A stretch of 63,056 nt of DNA, counting the filler, from Thelocarpon superellum (taxonomy: Eukaryota): NCBI GenBank assembly GCA_026025795.1. It is 7 parts of 7 records of this genome, joined end to end, with 100 filler letters (N's around TTAATTAATTAA, not from the genome) between each part and the next. Parts side by side here need not be neighbours in the genome. Positions count along the whole stretch, not along the records: positions 9,060 to 18,009 come from JAPEUG010000583.1; 6 more parts are not named here. One strand, given 5' to 3'. Shown piece by piece: positions 8,960-54,157 of this stretch. Every line of letters starts with the position of its first letter. Position 1 is the stretch's first letter. The translations under genes were made by a program, and so were the position numbers. Below the pieces are notes generated by a model. That model saw nothing but the letters and a program-made list of their open reading frames with translations, did no database searches and was not told where the DNA came from.

Positions 8960-9059
8960 NNNNNNNNNNNNNNNNNNNNNNNNNNNNNNNNNNNNNNNNN
9001 NNNTTAATTAATTAANNNNNNNNNNNNNNNNNNNNNNNNNNNNNNNNNNNNNNNNNNNN
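8960..9059. other. Artificial contig spacer (N44-TTAATTAATTAA-N44)
   Basis: 100-nt N block with a central 12-mer that gives stop codons in all six frames; identical at all six gaps. Confidence 0.98.
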
Positions 9060-9525: not shown

Positions 9526-12500
9526 TCACGCACCCCCACCCGGTAACTTGAGCTTGATGGTGAGCTTCCGCTCCGCCCCCTCGGCCTGTTTGGGCGGCGG
9601 CGGCGGCGGAGATACTGCGCTCTGGGCCGGCGGCTTTTCATTTCCCTTCTCGGCCATCTTCTTCTTGAAGATCAACTTCGGTCCCGTGCTCGCGAGCGGT
9701 GTCGAAGCGGATGCCGAGCTCTTGGCCTTGGCTTCGGACACGGGATCCGGTGCCAACGGCTTGATCCGTACGCTGCCCGTCTTGGTGAAGTGAAGTAGCC
9801 CCTATCGAGTCTCAGCCCATGCTTTCCTCCACACTCCCACCGACCCCTCCTCACCTTGTCGTTCGTCACCCGCCAATACCGAGGATACTTCATCACCACC
9901 AACATCGACGTCTCGGGTTTGTAGAGGAGGCCGCAGATCTCCAGCAGATCCCGCATCTCCCACAGCCCGATGTTGGGCGAGCTGTCTTGGTCAGTAGGGT
10001 GGACCAGCCTCACATATCTCACTTACGTCGTGGCCGCCCACAATCCCCTGGCCAGTCCCTCGTCGTCTTCGACCAGCTTCTGCAGCGCCGCCACGGCCCC
10101 GGGCACCGTCTGCGTCCGCGAGAGATCCGCCTGTCGTGCTGCCGTCGCCGACGCGTCTTGCTCGATGATCAGCCCGTCTTGTCTCGCTTCCGTCGGCTCC
10201 GCGCCCTCCGTCATGCCGCGACCCAGCGCGATCGCCGCGATGCCCTGCGTCAAGACCTGGCGCAGCTGCCCTCGAATCCATGGCGACGGGTCGGCATGCA
10301 GGACGGTGAGAAAGTACTTGGCAAAGGCCGGGTTCGTCAACAGCCCCAGGCGGACGAGGATGGCAAAGGCTTCCGCCCGGAGCAGCTCATACCCCCCGTC
10401 GCGCGTGTACTGGAAGAATGGGAGGGCGTCCAGCGAAATGACCTTGGCCTGCATCAGTCGCTCCTTACATCGGAGCGCCGTGACGGAGTAGAGGTTGTGA
10501 TACGACCCGATCCACTCGTCCATGCGGCTATATCGCTCCATCTCCTCCATGGCCATGTGCAGGAAGCGCTCGTGCTCCTCCTTCTCCTCCTCCTCGTCTT
10601 CGTCCGTGCTGAATGCCAAGCCGTCGAGACCGCCTCTCGTGATGAGAGCCTCCGACAGCGCCGTCATCAGGCCCGCCACGTAGTGGCAATCCGAGTACTG
10701 CCTCGTCAGCGTCCGGCCCCGCCCCGACTCCCCCCCCTGCTTGCTTACCTCGTTTCCCGCGTTGTCGTTGAACTTGAGCTTCTCGTACACGAACCGCTTG
10801 GCGCGGATCGGCGCCTTGCCGTGGTGGTCGCGGATCTTGGCCATGGCCTGGGGGATGGCGCATTGGATGTAGTAGGCCGCCCGGTCGGAGAAGTCGTTGG
10901 GCCGCGTCAGGGGCGTGTTCGGGTAGCAGAAGCATTCCTGAAAGGCCCGCTCGAGATGATACAGCCCGAGCCAGTCGAGCTCCGCCGTCGCCGTCTTGGC
11001 CAGCGCCAAGGCGGCGGCCGTGCGGATGCCGTGAAAGTACCGCCGATCCATCAAGGTGCGCACCAGGATGGTCGAGACCAGCGGCGTCTCGCGCTGCGTC
11101 GCAATATACTGCACCGACTGCGCCGTCGCGCCATCAGCGAGCGTCGCCGTGCCTGTCGGGTGACCCACCGACTCACCTCGTATTGCGCCACCACGTCGCG
11201 GTCCTGCTGCAGCTGCGACAGGTACATGTACCCCGGCATGCCCAAGGACGTCTTGCAGATCCACTCGAAATCTGCGTCCATGCGGATCCACTCGTACGAC
11301 TCTTGGCTCATCTTCTCCTCGTCGTCCTTGGACCAGTCCGCCAGCCGCCACTCCGCCATCTCCTCGTCCGACTGCAGCACGTCGCCCAGACAATACAGCA
11401 ACGCATCCTCCGGCGCATCGAGCGTCGCCTCCAGCCCGGGGTTGGCCACGGCCCGCTCCTTCTGTCGTCGACTCCGTTTCAACCGCTTGTACTTGGTGTT
11501 GTAGGGGATCTCGAACTTGGTGTTGTTGTCCTTGATCTCGACAATGTGCTCGTAGGGCGTGCCATCGGCCTCGTGGATCCGGATCGTCATGGGTCCGGTG
11601 AAGGCCCGCTGCACCTCGGGCGCCTCGACGTCCTGGGCCTGTTCCCGCACGTCGCGCATGAACGTGTCCACCGCGAGATCTTGGCTCACCACCCGGTCGC
11701 CTTGCACCTGCCGGATGAGCATCTCCACCACCAGCTTCTTCTTGTTGAAGCGTTGCGTCACGAGAAAACGGGGACAGCCCGCCCCAAACACCCACTGGTC
11801 GAAGAAGGCGTCCAGCTTGGTGTGGCCCAGCTTCTCACACGTGCGCAGGAAGTGCGCCGTCGTCAGCGCCCCGTTCGGCAGCTCGCCCACCTTGGCGTTC
11901 AGGAAGATGCGCGAGATGATCCGGGGCAGGCCCGACGACCCACTCGCCTTGGCCAGCCGCCGGTCAAGGATGAACAAGACCACCGGCGCCTTGAGCGACA
12001 GGAAGTGCCCCTCGGCCGGATCGAGCGCCCGCAGGCCGCCCAGGGCATGGATCGACGGCCGCCCCACATCGAGCTCGCAGATGCGATCGGCCAGCGTCTT
12101 CTGCCGGAAGCGATACTCGTTGTTCCCACACAGCTTCTTCATGAACAGGTCCGTGACGAAGTGCGCGACGCCCACCACCACCCATGCGTCCGTCGGCTCG
12201 GCCGGGATGATGTTGATGCCGCTCCACTGGCTCGCCAAGGAGTACACCACCTTGCGCGTCACCTCGTCCAGCGGCTCCACGATCTCGTCGGGGAACAGCA
12301 GCCGGTTGCTACAGAGCGAGAGCGCGGCCGTCTCGACCGTGTCCTCGATCAGATCGTCGACAAAGCAGACGTTGTAGTTGGTAAAGGGATAGGAGCCGTA
12401 GGTCAGGGTGAAGTGGTCGATGGCCTGGGCGCGTCAGCCGTGCTTCACCTCCCCTCGCGGCCCACTGGGGACTCTTACCTTGGCCATGGGCATACAGGTG

Positions 12501-14127: not shown

Positions 14128-15906
14128 TCACTTGAGCGCGTGTCCCGCTCCGTCTTTGCTCTCGCGCTTCAAGCGGCGTTTGGTCCGCGCACTGGCGATC
14201 TGGGCCTCGGGCGTTAGGATGTCGTCGGGCAACTCAAAGTACCGTTCGACCATCTCGGGCAGCGGACGCCCAAAGGCCGTCGCACTCCGCCCGCTCCGCC
14301 GATGGTTGCCCACCGCCGCCATGCGCAGATGTGGTTTCTTGTAAAAGGATGTAAATGGCTCCAGCGGTGCCGCTTCGACCTTTTCTGATGGTGGCGAGGC
14401 CGCCGCCGCGACCCACGTGGATGCGACGTAGGCACTCGTGGCGGAAAAGGCCTCTTGCCGCAGCTGCCGTGCCGCCCACGCGTCGACATCGTTGTAGTCT
14501 GGTGGATCCCCGTCGCTGAGCCCGTCCTCCCCGCCCATGAAGCCTCCGTGCTCGTCGACTTGCCCGGCGCTCTCCGCGTCCACTCCCTCCTCGCCATCCT
14601 CGACCTCGTCCAATTCCTCTGCATCATCAACGTCCTCGTCCTCCTCTTCCTCTTCTTCCTCTGCCTCGTCTGCCTCCATCTCCTCGTCCGCTTCCGCTTC
14701 CTCTTCCTCTTCCTCTACCTCGTCCTGCTCGGCCGCCTCTTCGCCGGCCAGCACGACGTGGTCTCGTTCCCACTTTCGCCGTTTCTCCTCTTCCTTCCAC
14801 GCCTTGAACTTTTTGATCAAGGCCGCCACCTCCTTGACAAAGTAGTCTCGCTTGTGCTCGTAGTCCTTCTTCTCCGACTCGGTGATGCCGCTAATGCCCA
14901 TGACCTTGAGCCAGTCCGGACCCCGTAGCCCCTCCAAGATGCGTTCGAGGTTGTCCTTCTCATGCTGCGCCTTATTCTTCTCGATGTTGCGCAGCTGCTT
15001 CTCGCGTCGTTCGGCCTTGCGGTGGCACTTGAGATAGTAGGCGTCATCCAGCGGGTCGCCCGGCGCGTGGCTGGCCCCTCGCTCGATGGAGGAAAAGTCG
15101 AGCTTCTGCGTGTTGTACAGCTTCGGGTAGCGCGTGCCCTTGGGCGCGAAGGGTGATCCCACGGGAATGGGCGAGGATTCGACGCCATTGACGTGCGCAC
15201 TCCTCCGTCGACTCGTCGGCGTCGCGTGCTTCACCGGTGTCGACGGTCGCGCGCGCGTCTGCTCGTCCACGACGACGAGGGGGGTCTCGGGGGTCAGGAA
15301 TTCTAGCTTCATCAGCCATCCTGCTCCTACGCCTGCGCCCTGCCCCGACTCACCGGGCGTGCGTGGCTCATTGCTGATCATCTCATCGTAACACGGGAAG
15401 AAGAGGGAGAGGTCGCTCTTGAAGCGCGAGGCTCCCCCTTGCGAGCGCAGCGATCGCCGCTCGCCCGGCACATGCGCCGTCTCGATGGTCAATTGCTTGA
15501 CCCGGTCCTTGGTGCTGGCGGGCGCATTCGCCGGTCGGAGGGCGTCGCGTGGGGGCCGACGGGTGGCCTTGTGGGCGCCATTGATGGCCCGGAGAGGGAG
15601 GGACTTGGTCGGCGCGGATTTGGATGTTCTGGCGCCCGACCCGCCCCGCAGGGCGACGGCGGCCTCGCGCGGACCGGGTCGGGATCGTGGCTCGAGCTGT
15701 CCCGGCGCCCGGCGCTCTACCTTGGCCCGTTTTACCGTGCGCCCGTCCGGGCTGGGGTCGGCGGCGGAGCGCTCACGTTTCGCGCGTTGGGCGAGGGTGG
15801 CTTTGGCGATGTTGGCCTTGGGCTCGGTCGCGGCCCCGTCCGTGGGCGGATGACGTCCGGCGACCCGATGACTGGATCGCAACGAAAGCTGGGTAGACGC
15901 GGCCAT
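14128..15906 (-). CDS. SAS4: SAS acetyltransferase complex subunit Sas4-domain protein
   Basis: DPLDDAYYLKCHRKAERREKQLRNIEK..LERILEGLRGPDWLKVMGISG, an acidic tract, and C-terminal PFTSFYKKPHLR..AFGRPLP. Likely in-frame intron at 15303-15353. First ATG at 15906. Confidence 0.85.
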   Translation of the reverse strand: MAASTQLSLRSSHRVAGRHPPTDGAATEPKANIAKATLAQRAKRERSAADPSPDGRTVKRAKVERRAPGQLEPRSRPGPREAAVALRGGSGARTSKSAPTKSLPLRAINGAHKATRRPPRDALRPANAPASTKDRVKQLTIETAHVPGERRSLRSQGGASRFKSDLSLFFPCYDEMISNEPRTPGESGQGAGVGAGWLMKLEFLTPETPLVVVDEQTRARPSTPVKHATPTSRRRSAHVNGVESSPIPVGSPFAPKGTRYPKLYNTQKLDFSSIERGASHAPGDPLDDAYYLKCHRKAERREKQLRNIEKNKAQHEKDNLERILEGLRGPDWLKVMGISGITESEKKDYEHKRDYFVKEVAALIKKFKAWKEEEKRRKWERDHVVLAGEEAAEQDEVEEEEEEAEADEEMEADEAEEEEEEEDEDVDDAEELDEVEDGEEGVDAESAGQVDEHGGFMGGEDGLSDGDPPDYNDVDAWAARQLRQEAFSATSAYVASTWVAAAASPPSEKVEAAPLEPFTSFYKKPHLRMAAVGNHRRSGRSATAFGRPLPEMVERYFELPDDILTPEAQIASARTKRRLKRESKDGAGHALK

Positions 15907-16734
15907 GGTGCTTGGTCGATGAGACACTCATCTTCCCCCGGCCCAGGTCGGATTGCGATCGGGATCCGCGGCGGAGGGGGTGCGTTGCCTCTGTACCGAC
16001 ACCGGCCACCTGCGCGCCGTCGTGTTTGGGCCCTGTTGCTGCCGTCTCGTCATTCTTTGTCGCTCCTTCGCCCGTTTTCTCGTGCCGACCCACGAGCACC
16101 GGCTCCGTAGGGAGCGATGGCCACCGGACACGCTCCGCTATTTCCTCCGCTCCATCGCCACCTTCTGACTGCACATCACTTTTTCGTCACGCATGTGTAC
16201 ATTGAACATGTTCAAGTGCTTCGATAATGTGATAGAGTCATTCTTCTCCCCGCACGCCTGACCTTGCACCAGATGCTATTCATGGCCATGCGCTCGATGC
16301 CGTCTTCCCTGGAAACATTTGCATGTGCTTCATCATATCCACGTGACTTGGCATGTTTGTCGCCAGAGAATGCTTGGATAGAACGATCCGCAGAATCAAG
16401 AAGGGCTTCTACGAGTGGCTGTACAGTATCCAGTGCCGATCTTTGGTCGTGCCAAAGTGCTGGGTGGCTACAGAAACATCGCTACCCAGCGACACCATAA
16501 CCGACGCCATATCTGTCCGCTCGGTTGTCTTCATTCGCGACGTACGCAGCAGCTGACGTGCGACGTTTGTCACGTCGGACACTTTGATAAATTTGAATGC
16601 GATTGGCCACTCTACGCCCTGTTCTTGACCTATCTGCACAAGACCCACATGGAGTCTACAGAGTAATCACAGAGTAATCACGCCCACCAAGAAAACAGCC
16701 ATCGCCTTTGAAACACAACAAACTACCAAATGTC

Positions 16735-16741
16735 AAAAAAA
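16735..16741 (-). terminator. RNA polymerase III terminator (T7) of the tRNA-Lys gene
   Basis: Seven A on the + strand give a T7 run on the minus strand, separated from the discriminator base by a single nucleotide. Confidence 0.85.
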
Positions 16742-16742
16742 G

Positions 16743-16866
16743 AGCCCGACCGGGGTCTCGAACCCCGAACCTTATGATTAAGAGTCATACGCTCTAACCA
16801 CTGGTGAACGTCAGCTTTCTGTTGCTCGTCTTCAATCTGAGAGATCTTACATTGAGCTAGCCAGGC
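16743..16866 (-). tRNA. tRNA-Lys(CTT), split by a 50-nt intron in the D-loop between nucleotides 16 and 17
   Basis: Joined exons (16866-16851 + 16800-16743) give GCCTGGCTAGCTCAAT|TGGTTAGAGCGTATGACTCTTAATCATAAGGTTCGGGGTTCGAGACCCCGGTCGGGCT (74 nt). It folds with a 7-bp acceptor stem (2 G-U pairs), D-stem GCTC/GAGC with G18G19, anticodon arm TATGA-CT[CTT]AA-TCATA, T-arm CGGGG-TTCGAGA-CCCCG and U73. From memory it is very similar to yeast tRNA-Lys(CUU). Confidence 0.93.
16801..16850 (-). other. Spliceosomal-type (U2) intron inside the tRNA-Lys gene
   Basis: Sequence GTAAGATCTCTCAGATTGAAGACGAGCAACAGAAAGCTGACGTTCACCAG: donor GTAAGA, branch GCTGAC ending 9 nt before the 3' end, acceptor CAG. Size and signals match the mRNA introns in this window, and exact GT-AG removal restores the D-loop. 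Confidence 0.88.
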
Positions 16867-18009
16867 GACGTTGAATGAAGTCCGTTAATATCCAAATATA
16901 ATCGTAGAAACACTATTCTCGTCAATCGGTAGAGGCCTGTTCAGTCGATGGCCCCTATCTTGTGAAACAGCCTTCGCGTGCAGCAAGCTTGGGGGTTGGT
17001 GATTTGTACGAAGACAAAGAATCAGGTGATAGCAAATGAACGAACTGTAAAGTTGAAAACAGATCACAACCCATCTGCAGTTTATCTAGGTTCGGATTAT
17101 TGAGCTGACTGTATCATCCCTTGTAGAGAAAAGTACATATCCGCGGTGGTTCTGATGTTCTAGTCACTTTACTGTGACAGAGGCTGATGCACATGGCGCC
17201 GTGAAAATCTCGTCATGTCTACCCAGCAACGCTTTCAGATGTTCTGGGACGCCTCAAGTAATAGAAGAGCTTCGGTCCTTTGCGCACAACAATCTCAATG
17301 TCTATAATTCTGTTCAAGACCGTGGTCCTAATCTTGCAGTCTTGCAAGCTTCATCATCACCACCAATGATACTACCACTGCCATCATAACTATCATCGCC
17401 TTCTCGCGGGAAGCGGAAGACTCCGGGGTCACCGTCGCTCTCGTCGCCTTTGGTGTGAGTACGTCTATTGTGGACACTGCGCGCTAACCTGGTTCCAGAT
17501 CTCCTACCACGATGTCGGACCAGCGCCAGGGCCAAGACCACGTCGACAGCTCGAGCGGCCGGGGATGGCTGGGTGACTGGCCGGTGGAGGGGGACTCGGT
17601 GGCTGGATCGATCCGCCAGATGGGTGGCCGGCGCGACAATACCGCTGTTTGGCCAGTAAGACGGCCACCCTGGCTACCCCGACTACGCCCCAAAACCGAC
17701 TTGCGGTCGGTCGGTACAACAGGGTGATGGGCCCCAACTTGGTCCGTGGTACTTGCGCCACCGGGCTACGGGGACTCAACCCTTGAAGACGAACGTCGAT
17801 AGCCTATGCCCACCGAGCTCCTTACCGCAGTCGGCCAACATGCGAGCCCCGGCTCCCTTTTTCCCGCTGAATCACGAAGGCCGTCTCGAGAGGGAGAAGG
17901 ACCGAGCGACCACAAGCATCAACCAGCCAAGCCACTCCCTCGGTGTCGGTACTGTCTTGGGACAGGCCGTGGTTGGGGTGCTTGTGTTGCCGCCTGTCGA
18001 AAATGCGGT

Positions 18010-18109
18010 NNNNNNNNNNNNNNNNNNNNNNNNNNNNNNNNNNNNNNNNNNNNTTAATTAATTAANNNNNNNNNNNNNNNNNNNNNNNNNNNNNNNNNNN
18101 NNNNNNNNN
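18010..18109. other. Artificial contig spacer
   Basis: N44-TTAATTAATTAA-N44. Confidence 0.98.
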
Positions 18110-19407
18110 ATTCCGCTGCTGGCTCTGACGAGCGAGGCATACTTCAAGTTCTGTGATCGAGACTGGGACCACAGCGGTCAAGAAGGTGGGCTGCCCTGTG
18201 GAGGGGCCCTGGCAACTGCTCCTGACGCCTTCATCTTTCAGAGCGAGCATATGAAAAGGGCCTGACTCTCCTCGACCATGGATGCATGTTCTCAGAGTTT
18301 GGGACGAGGAGGCGAAGGGACTACCGGACACAAGACATGGTCCTCCAGGGACTCATTCGGGCCTCAAGAGATGGCAAGGTGCGAGGATCCAGGGGGAAGC
18401 TCACGGGAACCAGCAACGTGCACTTTGCCATGCAATATAAGATCTCGCCGATTGGAACGGTGGCACACGAGTGGTTCATGGGCATCGCTGCCATTACCAA
18501 TTCGTACGAGGAAGCCACCGAGATCGCCCTACGCCATTGGGTCGCCACCTTCGGGGAAGGGGTCCGGACAGCTCCTCTCCTCCTCATGACCTTGTGGCTG
18601 ACGGCGTGCGATAGATCCTTGGAATCGCACTCACGGACACCTTCGGAACGCCTACATTCCTCAGGTCCTTCCGCCTCCCGATTACCCACTTAAGATCCAA
18701 GGGTGTCGGCGAGCAACTCCCTCAACACGCGCTCGCAGCATCATCGACAGCGTCAGCTCGCCACGGCCTGAACTCGACAGGACCGCCTGCGCAAACATCA
18801 CGAGACATGGTAGAAGACGTGGCATCTGCGACCAAGAAGACCTATGCGCAGGTGTTTACAGGAGTACGACAGGATTCCGGAGACCCAAATACCTTTGTGC
18901 AGATAATGCGTGACTTTTATGACCGCGAAGGAATCACGGTGAGTGGTGGCCGCTGAGGCTTGGATCGAGCTCCACTCACCATAGCTTAGGATAAGAAGAC
19001 CATCGTCTTTTCAGATTCGCTCAACATCAAGCTATGCCTCGAGTATAAGCAGAAAGCGGAAGAGGCCGGCTTTGAGCCCTCATTCGGGGTAGGCACATTC
19101 TTGACAAGTGAGTGGCAACTCCTCATGACCTTCTCCACCCTCCTGACATGGAAGGAAAGACGACTTCAAGCATCTGTCAAGCGGCGATAAATCCGTTCCT
19201 CTGAACATCGTAATTAAGCTCTCATCGGCAAGCGGCCGGCCGGCGGTGAAAATCAGCGATAACATTGGGAAAAACACGGGTGACAAGGAAACGGTGGATC
19301 TGGTGAAGCACAAGCTGGGATACGTGGAGAAGACCTGGGAAGCCGGCGACGAGAAGGCGCGATGGGGCTCGGCGTCGGGCGATGAGCTCAACAAAGACCC
19401 CCGCTAA
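18110..19407 (+). CDS. NPT1: Nicotinate phosphoribosyltransferase, 5' part missing at the contig edge
   Basis: [103 protein letters not shown]. Stop TAA at 19405-19407. Confidence 0.95.
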
Positions 19408-20344: not shown

Positions 20345-22088
20345 ATGAGCGTGAGTCGCGATAATTGATCCTTTCCCCGGGCCATGACTAGGGTTTCTAT
20401 GAAACATCTGCTGACAGCCTCCGCCTTAGTACGGGTTAGTATCCTCTCTGAAGTCTGGCGCAAGCCGGACTTAGGATTCCTTCAACCCTCACTCCACCGA
20501 AGCGGGACTGCCCACATGTCCCCCATCCTTAAGCTGGCCTTTCTCGTTGATTGCGACCAAGATTGGTCTCTCAATTGCCCACCTCCCATATGTCTCACGA
20601 CGTGACGTTTGATCTCTGAGAGACACGGCTGACGCCGGCGACCTAAACAGTGGATATGATAATCCTGGCTACGGCCGAGGAGGCCAGGGAGGCCAGGGAG
20701 GCCCAGGAGGTCGAGGCGGCAGAGGCGGCAACCCATATGGTCAAGACGCCGGCAATCCATACGACCAGCGACCCTCCCAAGGAGGTGGACAGTACGGCCA
20801 AGGCCAACAGGGTTATCAACAGGGACCTCAGCAGCAGCCTTACGGTCAGCCAGCTCCCAATCGATATGGACCGCAAGCGGGTGCAACATACGGGCAGCAA
20901 GGTGGTCGGACTCAACCCCAGAACGGGGGCTATGGTGGATATGGACCGTATGGTAAGTTGGCAGAAGTTTGGATTGATTCATAAGTCCGAAAGGTGGCTG
21001 AAGAACGATATAGGAGGTAACCAAGGTCAAAACGACGTTGAGCTTGGTCAAATAGATAGCCGTCCAAGCAACTATGGCCCGGTTGACAGCCGTACCAGCG
21101 ACTACGGGCGAAATGGATCGCAGAGCCAAGGCATGGGAGGGATGGGCGCGAGCTTAGGCTCGGACCCGAACTCTATCCTCAACGAGTGCCGAGAGGTTGA
21201 TCGCGGTGTCGATGAGATCGAGCGGTACATCGACCAATTAAAGGGGGCGCAGAAGAGGTACTTCCAGGGTACGGATCGGAGCAGACGGAGCGCCCCCAGA
21301 CAAGAGGTGGATCGCCTGCACACGGACACGAAGACCCTTTTCCAAAATCTGCTCATGCGCATGAGGAAGATCAAGGCGCTTCCTGAGTCTGGGAGTCCCA
21401 AAAACGCGGCTCAGGTCGGCAAGGTCGATCGAAGGCTCAAGACCGCCTTCAACCAGTATCAGATTGCCGACCGGGACTTTCGCAAACAGGTCAATGCAAC
21501 CTCGGAGCGGGAGATCCGAATCGTTAACCCGAACGCCACCGACGCGGAAGTTCGAGAGGCCGTGGAAAGTGACAACGACGGCAACATTTTCAGTCAGGCT
21601 GTTGGTGAATCCCTCCCTTTGCACCGCGGCGAAACTAATGTATCACATTTGGTAGCTTCTTCAAGGTGACCGTCGTGGGCAAGCCCAGACGGTCCTGAGT
21701 CAGGTCAGCGACCGGCACGAGATGATCCAAAAGATCGAACAGCAGATGATCGAACTGGCGGAAATGTTTCAAGAAATGGATGCTATGGTCGTGCAACAAG
21801 AGCCTGCTGTGATGCAGATCGAGCAACAAGGCGAGCAAGTGACGCAAGATGTCACGAAAGCGAACGAGGAGATCGCTGGTGCCGTGGTCAAAGCCAAGGC
21901 TCGCAACCGGAAGAAGTGGTGGTGCCTCCTCATTGCCGGTGAGTTGCTGCCATCTCACCGTTGGCTTCATGTCTCTAACAGAGCGCGCAGTCCTCATCAT
22001 CGTCGTCATCATTATCATCGTCGTGGTCGTGGTAGAAGTCCTGAAGGTTGGCCAGAAGTCTACCCAGGCTGCTACAGGATCTACGTGA
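20345..22088 (+). CDS. SSO1: Plasma-membrane syntaxin (Sso1/2-type Qa-SNARE) with a long G/Q/Y/P-rich N-terminus
   Basis: Habc region, EIRIVNPNATDAEVREAV, SNARE motif RHEMIQKIEQQMIELAEMFQEM..QQE, ARNRKKWWC followed by a C-terminal TM helix. Proposed exons: ATGAGC (20345-20350), microexon TACGG (20430-20434), 20651-20952, 21014-21600, then two more. Confidence 0.9.
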
Positions 22089-27034: not shown

Positions 27035-27134
27035 NNNNNNNNNNNNNNNNNNNNNNNNNNNNNNNNNNNNNNNNNNNNTTAATTAATTAANNNNNNNNNN
27101 NNNNNNNNNNNNNNNNNNNNNNNNNNNNNNNNNN
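27035..27134. other. Artificial contig spacer
   Basis: N44-TTAATTAATTAA-N44. Confidence 0.98.
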
Positions 27135-36047: not shown

Positions 36048-36147
36048 NNNNNNNNNNNNNNNNNNNNNNNNNNNNNNNNNNNNNNNNNNNNTTAATTAAT
36101 TAANNNNNNNNNNNNNNNNNNNNNNNNNNNNNNNNNNNNNNNNNNNN
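36048..36147. other. Artificial contig spacer
   Basis: N44-TTAATTAATTAA-N44. Confidence 0.98.
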
Positions 36148-45053: not shown

Positions 45054-45153
45054 NNNNNNNNNNNNNNNNNNNNNNNNNNNNNNNNNNNNNNNNNNNNTTA
45101 ATTAATTAANNNNNNNNNNNNNNNNNNNNNNNNNNNNNNNNNNNNNNNNNNNN
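45054..45153. other. Artificial contig spacer
   Basis: N44-TTAATTAATTAA-N44. Confidence 0.98.
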
Positions 45154-45629: not shown

Positions 45630-46446
45630 CTACACACGCCTAAAGGCCATCACAACAGCATCCAGCCGGTCCAGAACCTCTTCTCGCGCTCGCACCGCCT
45701 GTGTCCGCTCCTCTTCCGCGCGTTTCAACTCGGCCTGCAAGTCCTTCAACCGCGCCTCTTGATCTGCCTCGCTCCGCTCTATGCCAGGTAGGTGGGCAAT
45801 CAGCACTTCGATCTGCGCCTCTTTGAGTAGCAAGTCGCGCGCCAGCTCGTGTTGGCGTCGGCGGAAGGTCGTGGGTGTGTCTGGGCGTGGAACCTCGGGC
45901 GCGGAAGAGTGGGACTGGGATTGCTGTGGCGGGGGAGAGGTTTCGGCGCCTTGTGAGGCGGTAGTGGTGGTGGTGCCGCCGGCGTGGTTCGACGCGGACG
46001 TGGACGTCGACGCCCCAGGTGCCGCCGGTAGGTGGTGAGATGATATGTACCGTAACGAGGCGTAGAATTGTGTCGCTAGCTGTAAAGAAAAAGAACGGAT
46101 GGGGTCAGCTGGTGGAAAGAGAGGAAGAGGGGGGGATGAGAGTATAGTAGCACACGAATTGAGAGAGAGAGAAGCGATGAGAAAGTGAGGAAGAGGGGGG
46201 GAGAGAGGATAGTAGCACACGAATTGAGAGAGAGAGAAGCGATGAGAAAGTGAGGAAGAGGGGGGGAGAGAGGATAGTAGCACACGAGTTGAGAGAGAGA
46301 GAAGCGATGAGAAAGTGAGGAAGAGGGGGGGGAGAGGATAGTAGCACACGAATTGAGAGAGAGAGAAGCGATGAGAAAGTGAGGAAGATGGTGCGGGGAC
46401 GAACTTGGTCAAATGCATCTTGTAGTTGGGTTAATCGGTCGGCCAT
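45630..46446 (-). CDS. SRB7: Mediator subunit Med21/Srb7
   Basis: MADRLTQLQDAFDQ|LATQFYASLRYI..ELARDLLLKEAQIEVLIAHLPGIERSEADQ. Intron at 46404-46080 (GTTCGT...GCTGAC...CAG). Confidence 0.93.
46122..46388. repeat. Minisatellite of about 65 nt x 4, inside the MED21 intron
   Basis: Unit GAGGAAGAGGGGGGGAGAGAGGATAGTAGCACACGAATTGAGAGAGAGAGAAGCGATGAGAAAGT; the anchor GCACACGA starts at 46150, 46215, 46280 and 46344. Confidence 0.95.
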
Positions 46447-54057: not shown

Positions 54058-54157
54058 NNNNNNNNNNNNNNNNNNNNNNNNNNNNNNNNNNNNNNNNNNN
54101 NTTAATTAATTAANNNNNNNNNNNNNNNNNNNNNNNNNNNNNNNNNNNNNNNNNNNN
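54058..54157. other. Artificial contig spacer
   Basis: N44-TTAATTAATTAA-N44. Confidence 0.98.

Follow-up and report, generated by a model that had tools for sequence, protein, structure and literature searches.

Introns of the spliceosomal type are not confined to messenger RNA (mRNA). Those in the U6 genes of Schizosaccharomyces pombe and other fungi were reportedly described by Tani and Ohshima in 1989 and 1991 and by Canzler et al. in 2016, the spliceosomal introns in the U1, U2 and U5 small nuclear RNA (snRNA) genes of Rhodotorula hasegawae are said to have been found by Takahashi et al. in 1993 and 1996, and those in ribosomal RNA (rRNA) genes of ascomycetes reportedly go back to Bhattacharya et al. 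in 2000. We know of no report of a spliceosomal intron in a transfer RNA (tRNA). A search of the full-text literature, with subscription journals and supplements outside its scope, likewise found no described case, in agreement with what had been stated in an earlier reading of the same DNA (here termed the sequence-only reading). The present analysis concerns a gene for tRNA-Lys(CTT) in the ascomycete Thelocarpon superellum, assembly GCA_026025795.1, whose D-loop is interrupted by a 50-nucleotide (nt) insert that resembles an mRNA intron. The window, that is the whole stretch of DNA that was analysed, comprises 63,056 nt, and all coordinates count along it.

S. pombe has a single U6 gene, which carries an mRNA-type intron, and splicing of this RNA polymerase III (Pol III) transcript has been shown experimentally (PMC5855946). 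Statements attributed to this and the following sources refer to excerpts of the respective articles. The 2018 review of U6 names U6, U2, U5, U1 and rRNA as the RNAs other than mRNA in which spliceosomal introns occur, and no tRNA is among them (PMC5855946). The introns of tRNAs are removed by an all-protein system of endonuclease and ligase (PMC12530127, PMC10485636), and it was put forward in 2025 that the three nuclear intron types are unrelated, with spliceosomal introns residing in transcripts of RNA polymerase II (Pol II) (PMC12530127). A eukaryotic tRNA gene with an insertion in its D- or T-arm usually belongs to a set of many synonymous genes and is regarded as a pseudogene (Yoshihisa, PMC4090602); as exceptions the same excerpt names nucleomorphs and Cyanidioschyzon merolae, where the insertions are governed by bulge-helix-bulge (BHB) motifs.

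The tRNA-Lys(CTT) gene of T. superellum lies on the minus strand and falls into two exons. Exon 1 (GCCTGGCTAGCTCAAT; 16 nt, 16866..16851) provides the 5' strand of the acceptor stem, T8 and A9, the 5' strand of the D-stem and the D-loop nucleotides A14, A15 and T16. Exon 2 (58 nt, 16800..16743, beginning TGGTTAGAGC), identified with ARAGORN and Rfam, extends from T17, G18 and G19 of the D-loop over the anticodon arm, with the anticodon CTT at 16782..16780, and the T arm to the 3' strand of the acceptor stem and the discriminator T. Between tRNA positions 16 and 17 the 50-nt insert is found (GTAAGATCTCTCAGATTGAAGACGAGCAACAGAAAGCTGACGTTCACCAG; 16850..16801), the termini of which read GTAAGATCTC on the 5' side and AAAGCTGACGTTCACCAG on the 3' side. 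When the exons are joined by their coordinates, ARAGORN returns a 74-nt tRNA-Lys(ctt) in which all stems are fully paired, with 7/7 pairs in the acceptor stem (two of them G-U), 4/4 in the D-stem, 5/5 in the anticodon stem and 5/5 in the T-stem. By inspection of the ARAGORN drawing, T8, A14, G18 G19, A21, T33 and the A37 that follows the anticodon are present in the joined molecule, and GTTCGA in the T loop, A15/T48, G26/A44 and the T discriminator are intact as well. With the insert taken out, the locus thus has the cloverleaf and the conserved and tertiary-interaction bases of a functional cytosolic tRNA gene. Exon 2 is followed by a single C and then by seven T residues at 16741..16735.

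Exon 1 is not a partner that exon 2 would find easily. Only 11 of the 124,700 16-mers of the window pair at 11/11 positions with the 3' strands of the acceptor and D-stems in exon 2, and T8 and A14 are additionally present in just two of these, one of which is exon 1. The cloverleaf by itself does not fix the junction, as cuts one or two bases off would also leave a legal D-loop (by inspection); GT/AG is the junction that fits the splice signals. The tRNA is in demand: over three stretches of coding sequence, 68 of the 79 codons for lysine are AAG.

The insert combines the features of a U2-type GT-AG intron: a 5' splice site GTAAGA (16850..16845), a CTRAC element near the 3' end in the form of GCTGAC (16815..16810), whose predicted branch-point A (16811) has a distance of 10 nt to the 3' end of the intron, a YAG 3' splice site in the form of CAG (16803..16801), and a length within the range of its host, all on the minus strand. 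Its base content is A18 C11 G12 T9, with no T run longer than two. The mRNA introns of the window used for comparison come from a crude scan for insertions bridging open reading frames (ORFs), which gives a noisy list in sequence of 60% G+C; the convincing ones measure 45-79 nt and have a CTRAC located 10-20 nt ahead of YAG. Among these, a 54-nt intron in a TAF2-like gene (12478..12425, minus strand) that bridges 357 and 457 open codons, reads GTAAGAG...GGCTGACGCGCCCAG and has the GTAAGA hexamer, GCTGACG and the CAG end just as the tRNA insert, the two being unrelated in sequence outside the three shared motifs. The combination is rare. Among the 124,224 50-mers of the window, 408 run from GT to AG, four of these begin with GTRAGW, three also have a pyrimidine before AG, and only one, the insert itself, carries CTRAC in addition (allowed at 6-36 nt from the end). 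If the length is set free between 40 and 70 nt, just 14 pairs of position and length in the whole window satisfy all splice signals. Both central elements of the sequence-only reading have therefore held up: the exons join into a fully paired 74-nt tRNA-Lys cloverleaf followed by T7, at exactly the coordinates proposed, and the insert matches the mRNA introns of the window, as judged by the TAF2-like intron with the same three motifs and by its singular position among the 50-mers.

The signals expected of a gene transcribed by Pol III are in place. A B box (GGTTCGAGACC; 16754..16764, minus strand) is the sole match to GGTTCRANNCC in the window, the T7 run that begins 2 nt after the discriminator has the form of a Pol III terminator, and no internal terminator occurs, the longest T run of the intron being two. 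The A-box region is split, with positions 8-16 in exon 1 and G18 G19 50 nt beyond, and the distance from T8 to the B box amounts to 95 nt with the insert and 45 nt without it, a change in spacing that TFIIIC would probably tolerate. Upstream, a TATA-like TATATTT (16894..16900, minus strand) lies at -34 to -28 from the first tRNA base and may act at this gene; in certain fungi, the transcription of tRNA genes is known to rely on TATA boxes upstream of them (PMC3978253).

We favour, at a rough probability of 0.55, the reading that the locus represents a functioning nuclear gene for tRNA-Lys(CUU), the Pol III precursor of which would contain a U2-type GT-AG intron that the spliceosome excises. 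Pol III transcription, spliceosomal splicing and the function of the product are all inferred from sequence features. Pol III would start near exon 1, guided by the TATA-like box, the portion of the A box that exon 1 contains and the intact B box, would read through the 50-nt intron, which offers no T run above two, and would stop at T7. The spliceosome would recognize AAU/GUAAGA, GCUGAC with the A at 16811, and CAG/U. The intron would leave as a lariat and U16 would be joined to U17, giving the junction GCTCAAT/TGGTTAGAG. A normal tRNA that reads AAG could then result from the action of RNase P and RNase Z, the addition of CCA and modification. A more far-reaching proposal, which we put forward tentatively and at clearly less than even odds, is that the intron-bearing gene is the only tRNA-Lys(CUU) gene of the fungus, that decoding of AAG depends on the spliceosome, and that the intron arose by reverse splicing and has been kept by selection.

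A self-splicing intron, whether of group I or of group II, was considered and rejected. The insert comprises only 50 nt, where such introns measure hundreds of bases, and a search with Rfam at E values up to 1 over 16500-17100 returned only the tRNA. Folding of the insert speaks further against this type, since it is no better than that of shuffled sequences (z = -0.44, with 64 of 200 shuffles folding as well) and no unusual structure was detected. As there is neither a BHB motif (see below) nor a match to a ribozyme family nor a notable fold, the spliceosome would be the remaining route for removal of the insert.

Evidence on the reality of the locus and on its variation comes from public DNA runs, five of which carry parts of 15000-17900. 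Four (X1-X4) were compared at 80% likeness; X1 is the likely source run, and X2 and X3 are moss metagenomes. A 242-nt contig present in X2 and X3 covers 16654-16874, the insert included, and differs from the window at six positions, the five listed ones being 16669, 16742, 16828, 16844 and 16868. A 164-nt contig from X4 spans 16731-16889 with eight differences, six of them listed. No exon difference occurs among those listed for these contigs. Since they carry the same structure with the insert in place, misassembly, the concern attached to the sequence-only reading, is excluded.

In X1, two versions of 16579-16950 exist in the form of closed bubbles, with depths of 82.1 + 36.6, 85.4 + 42.4 and 76.8 + 25.9. 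Added together, these depths come to roughly that of the shared flanks, so that the two versions behave as alleles or co-occurring strains and not as paralogues. The minor haplotype, whose differences are listed in full, shows 0 differences in the 74 nt of the exons and 2 in the 50 nt of the insert (positions 7 and 8), compared to 18 substitutions and 2 indels in 54 nt of the upstream flank and 7 substitutions and 1 indel in 134 nt of the downstream flank. The flanks within the variable tract thus total 25/188 substitutions and 3 indels. For this one X1 haplotype pair, Fisher's test gives p = 0.00015 for exons versus flanks and p = 0.047 for insert versus flanks. Purifying selection on the mature tRNA sequence is accordingly seen in one haplotype pair and relative to a locally defined flank. 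The variable tract is a reasonable neutral yardstick, since according to published work tRNA genes under active transcription are marked by flanks of sharp variability next to a body free of changes (PMC6130373). Within the insert, the variable sites among haplotypes are 16828, 16843 and 16844 (positions 23, 8 and 7), all of them outside the splice signals, and the GTAAGA hexamer and the GCTGAC motif are unchanged in all haplotypes compared.

Some further observations concern the X1 sequences. The dense polymorphism between the two versions forms a tract of about 310 nt (16609-16920) centred on the tRNA, with 27 substitutions and 3 indels, and outside this tract the versions are identical over the rest of 15000-17900. 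The TATA-like box is destroyed in the minor haplotype by changes at 16893, 16894, 16896 and 16897. Loose ends of X1 contigs at 15847, 17670, 17748 and 17820 read as the library adapter CTGTCTCTTATACACATCT and its complement, which means that some of the X1 Logan contigs terminate in adapter.

An intronless twin of the gene was sought in X1, and neither a joint skipping the insert nor a loose end at the tRNA was found in these contigs, the filters of which drop records. Depth is 92.4 (195.1 minus 102.7) in the contig that covers exon 2 and the larger part of the insert, versus 106-165 in unique neighbours, which places exon 2 at single-copy level, and single-copy contigs by themselves account for the bin mean depth of 159.7 (159.74 when recalculated). 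As a control for sensitivity, foreign tRNA matches of 47 nt and 81% likeness appear with loose ends in X2 and X3, and since these were detected a second Lys(CTT)-like gene should have shown. We regard the lack of an intronless twin in X1 as suggestive, not as proof.

Relatives of the interrupted gene were looked for in contig collections. Two selective patterns were applied to metagenome contigs, one composed of the exon 1 tail, GT, 36-66 nt, AG and exon 2 with the CTT loop, the other of the anticodon arm, the D-arm and YAG with a non-G in place of G10; each yielded 0 matches, and, being so selective, neither tells whether the collection contains fungal Lys(CTT) genes at all. A 25-nt core of the anticodon arm gave 0 matches in prokaryotic genome contigs and 0 in viral contigs, a result of little information for fungi.

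Several points weigh against a working, spliceosome-dependent gene. A first exon of 16 nt in an uncapped, tightly folding Pol III transcript would probably be an unusual substrate for the spliceosome. No RNA run is listed as containing 15000-17900, and no relative with such a tRNA intron was found in the metagenome, prokaryotic or viral contig collections. The absence of intronless Lys(CTT) copies is an observation on X1 contigs, where holes prove nothing. The contrast between exons and flanks presupposes that the tract of about 310 nt is a neutral yardstick, and it is weak when measured against the downstream flank alone (p = 0.043 for the exons, p = 0.54 for the insert). Among the differences of the other contigs, 1/6 in X2/X3 and 2/8 in X4 are not listed and cannot be placed. 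Three variable sites would miss all 14 signal positions by chance in 36% of cases. Finally, all of the sequences compared are haplotypes at the population level, so that the intron could be young.

One rival explanation, which we hold to be rather unlikely, is that the gene is dead or dying: an intron-like piece would have entered one of several tRNA-Lys(CTT) genes and would not be removed, or not usefully, while other, intronless copies supply the tRNA. That eukaryotic tRNA genes with insertions in the D- or T-arm are pseudogenes is the default view in the excerpt of PMC4090602, and it counts against a functional gene here as well. A homologous intron was not found elsewhere in the collections scanned, and the haplotypes are so closely related that the unchanged exons may partly reflect youth. 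On the other hand, a dead copy is difficult to reconcile with 0/74 changes in the exons against 25/188 in the flanks (p = 0.00015), with the integrity of all stem pairs and conserved bases, and with X1 contigs that display none of the joints, loose ends or extra depth expected from an intronless twin. It also leaves unexplained why a full set of splice signals should sit exactly at the borders of the insert.

The working gene could also owe its splicing to another polymerase. A Pol II transcript extending across the locus would then harbour the insert as a spliceosomal intron, and RNase P and RNase Z would release the tRNA from the host RNA after splicing. As a rule, the spliceosome acts in a manner coupled to Pol II, and the genomic setting would allow for such a transcript: the tRNA shares its strand with a gene for a SAS4-family protein (14131..15906, minus strand; Pfam E = 1e-32) and is found about 840 nt upstream of the gene start, inside a gene-free stretch of 2.3 kb. 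The tRNA gene, however, has Pol III hallmarks of its own in the TATA-like box, the B box and T7, no RNA run supporting a host transcript is listed for the locus, and the U6 RNA of S. pombe is a spliced Pol III transcript (PMC5855946, excerpt). We consider a Pol II host improbable.

The protein machinery for tRNA introns offers a further route. In this case the insert would be a non-canonical tRNA intron processed by the tRNA splicing endonuclease and a ligase, as in Cyanidioschyzon merolae or nucleomorphs. Ectopic D-arm introns are cut by protein machinery in the red alga and in nucleomorphs (PMC4090602, PMC3978253), and eukaryotic endonucleases are able to cut BHB substrates (PMC4090602), as far as the excerpts go. 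Such a substrate is not formed at the T. superellum locus: at the splice sites 0/4 central, 0/3 outer and 1/3 inner pairs of a BHB are possible, and the best score in the vicinity (8/10) was reached by 311 of 500 shuffles. The insert is located at position 16/17, and the fungal tRNA splicing endonuclease (TSEN) measures from the tRNA body to 37/38 (PMC10485636, excerpt). Cleavage by an endonuclease would moreover leave the set of GTAAGA, GCTGAC and CAG unexplained, and we judge it very improbable. A chance resemblance or an assembly artefact, for which it can be said that the locus was first picked by eye and for which no other support was found, is a negligible option in view of the same structure in the X2/X3 and X4 contigs and of the rarity of the splice signals (1/124,224) and of exon 1 (2/124,700).

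As to the origin of the insert in the working gene that we favour, the most natural but speculative guess, by analogy with U6, is that an intron entered an abundant tRNA by reverse splicing. A tandem duplication of a part of the tRNA, suggested by eye from a likeness of the insert ends to the D-arm, was rejected on the basis of shuffles: the local alignment score of 11 for the insert was reached by 1267 of 2000 shuffled sequences, the score of its first 25 nt with the start of exon 2 by 973/2000, and that of its last 25 nt with exon 1 by 1595/2000. Nor does the insert look like a transposon with terminal repeats, as no direct or inverted repeat of at least 7 nt exists in 16720-16900. A second copy of the insert was not found in the window, where the best other matches in a blastn-short search comprise 9-14 nt with E values of at least 1.9; an introner family with members elsewhere in the genome is conceivable.

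The interrupted gene is not overlooked by standard tRNA finders, but it is modelled incorrectly. On unspliced DNA, ARAGORN constructs a distorted 75-nt tRNA (16742-16816) in which the 3' end of the insert serves as a false 5' half, and the Rfam tRNA model reports 32.1 bits, the gathering score being 29, in an alignment where the greater part of the 5' strand of the acceptor stem is deleted. This contiguous tRNA at 16742-16816 was rejected as a real gene in view of its mispaired acceptor and D-stems and of a score so near to the cut-off. The expectation of the sequence-only reading that finders would miss the gene has thus to be modified: ARAGORN and Rfam do report it, and what holds is that the 5' half is wrong and the score borderline. 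Further hidden tRNA genes do not appear in the window, which has one B-box match and one Rfam match. Since standard finders mis-model such genes, fungal tRNA complements may be under-counted or their members wrongly called pseudogenes, and a split-aware scan of tRNA genes for GT..CTRAC..YAG inserts would be a simple test on a genome-wide scale.

Other features of the window are mentioned for completeness. Regions 18226-18693 and 20647-21549, both on the plus strand, match nicotinate phosphoribosyltransferase (NAPRTase; E = 5e-21) and, weakly, a syntaxin-like family (21.1 bits, below the Pfam cut-off of 26.5). Twelve runs of exactly 44 N occur in pairs about 9,040 bases apart (8960-9059, 18010-18109, 27035-27134, 36048-36147, 45054-45153 and 54058-54157), one pair being situated 1.1 kb upstream of the tRNA, ahead of the NAPRTase gene; the regular spacing looks like data masking and not like assembly gaps. 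At 46076-46220 (minus strand) an intron-like pyrimidine-rich stretch consists of two tandem copies of a unit of about 65 nt, each beginning GTGTGCTACTAT, with two alternative donor-like sites ahead of a single CAGCTGAC...TTTACAG acceptor region.

The tRNA-Lys insert shares with canonical tRNA introns its residence in a nuclear tRNA gene and the circumstance that its removal is required for function. Canonical introns lie at 37/38, are handled by TSEN and, in fungi, the ligase Trl1, and have no sequence signals, whereas the insert lies at 16/17 and has the full mRNA-type set. The predicted chemistry differs correspondingly, with a lariat for the insert as opposed to cleavage by an endonuclease and ligation for the canonical introns. 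If true, the reading of a spliceosome-dependent tRNA gene would break the separation of the two nuclear intron systems that textbooks and recent reviews uphold. The ectopic introns of C. merolae, nucleomorphs and archaea resemble the insert in that they interrupt the D-arm and hide the gene from standard finders. They are, however, BHB-defined or only 3-24 nt long and cut by an endonuclease (PMC4090602, PMC3978253, excerpts), while the insert lacks a BHB and exhibits spliceosomal signals instead.

Among spliceosomal introns, those of the R. hasegawae snRNA and ascomycete rRNA genes are comparable in occupying fungal non-mRNA hosts, some of them RNAs that lie off the spliceosomal active site. 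These hosts are transcripts of Pol II or Pol I, unlike the tRNA-Lys gene. Should RNA data confirm the splicing, no earlier tRNA would be known to mature by way of the spliceosome, the list of non-mRNA hosts, so far U6, U2, U5, U1 and rRNA, would extend to the most abundant class of Pol III product, and reverse splicing or another mode of intron gain could be said to reach RNAs that have no connection with the spliceosomal active site. U6 of S. pombe and other fungi has most in common with the T. superellum gene. In both cases a GT-AG intron with a branch point resides in a short, structured non-coding Pol III RNA, and the U6 and tRNA-Lys genes both have an internal promoter, a T-run terminator and an intron that is otherwise unconserved. 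They differ in that splicing has been shown in S. pombe and is deduced here, and in that a tRNA is no component of the spliceosome: U6 is placed at the catalytic centre and the tRNA is not, so that the argument from proximity, by which reverse splicing into U6 can be explained, fails for the tRNA.

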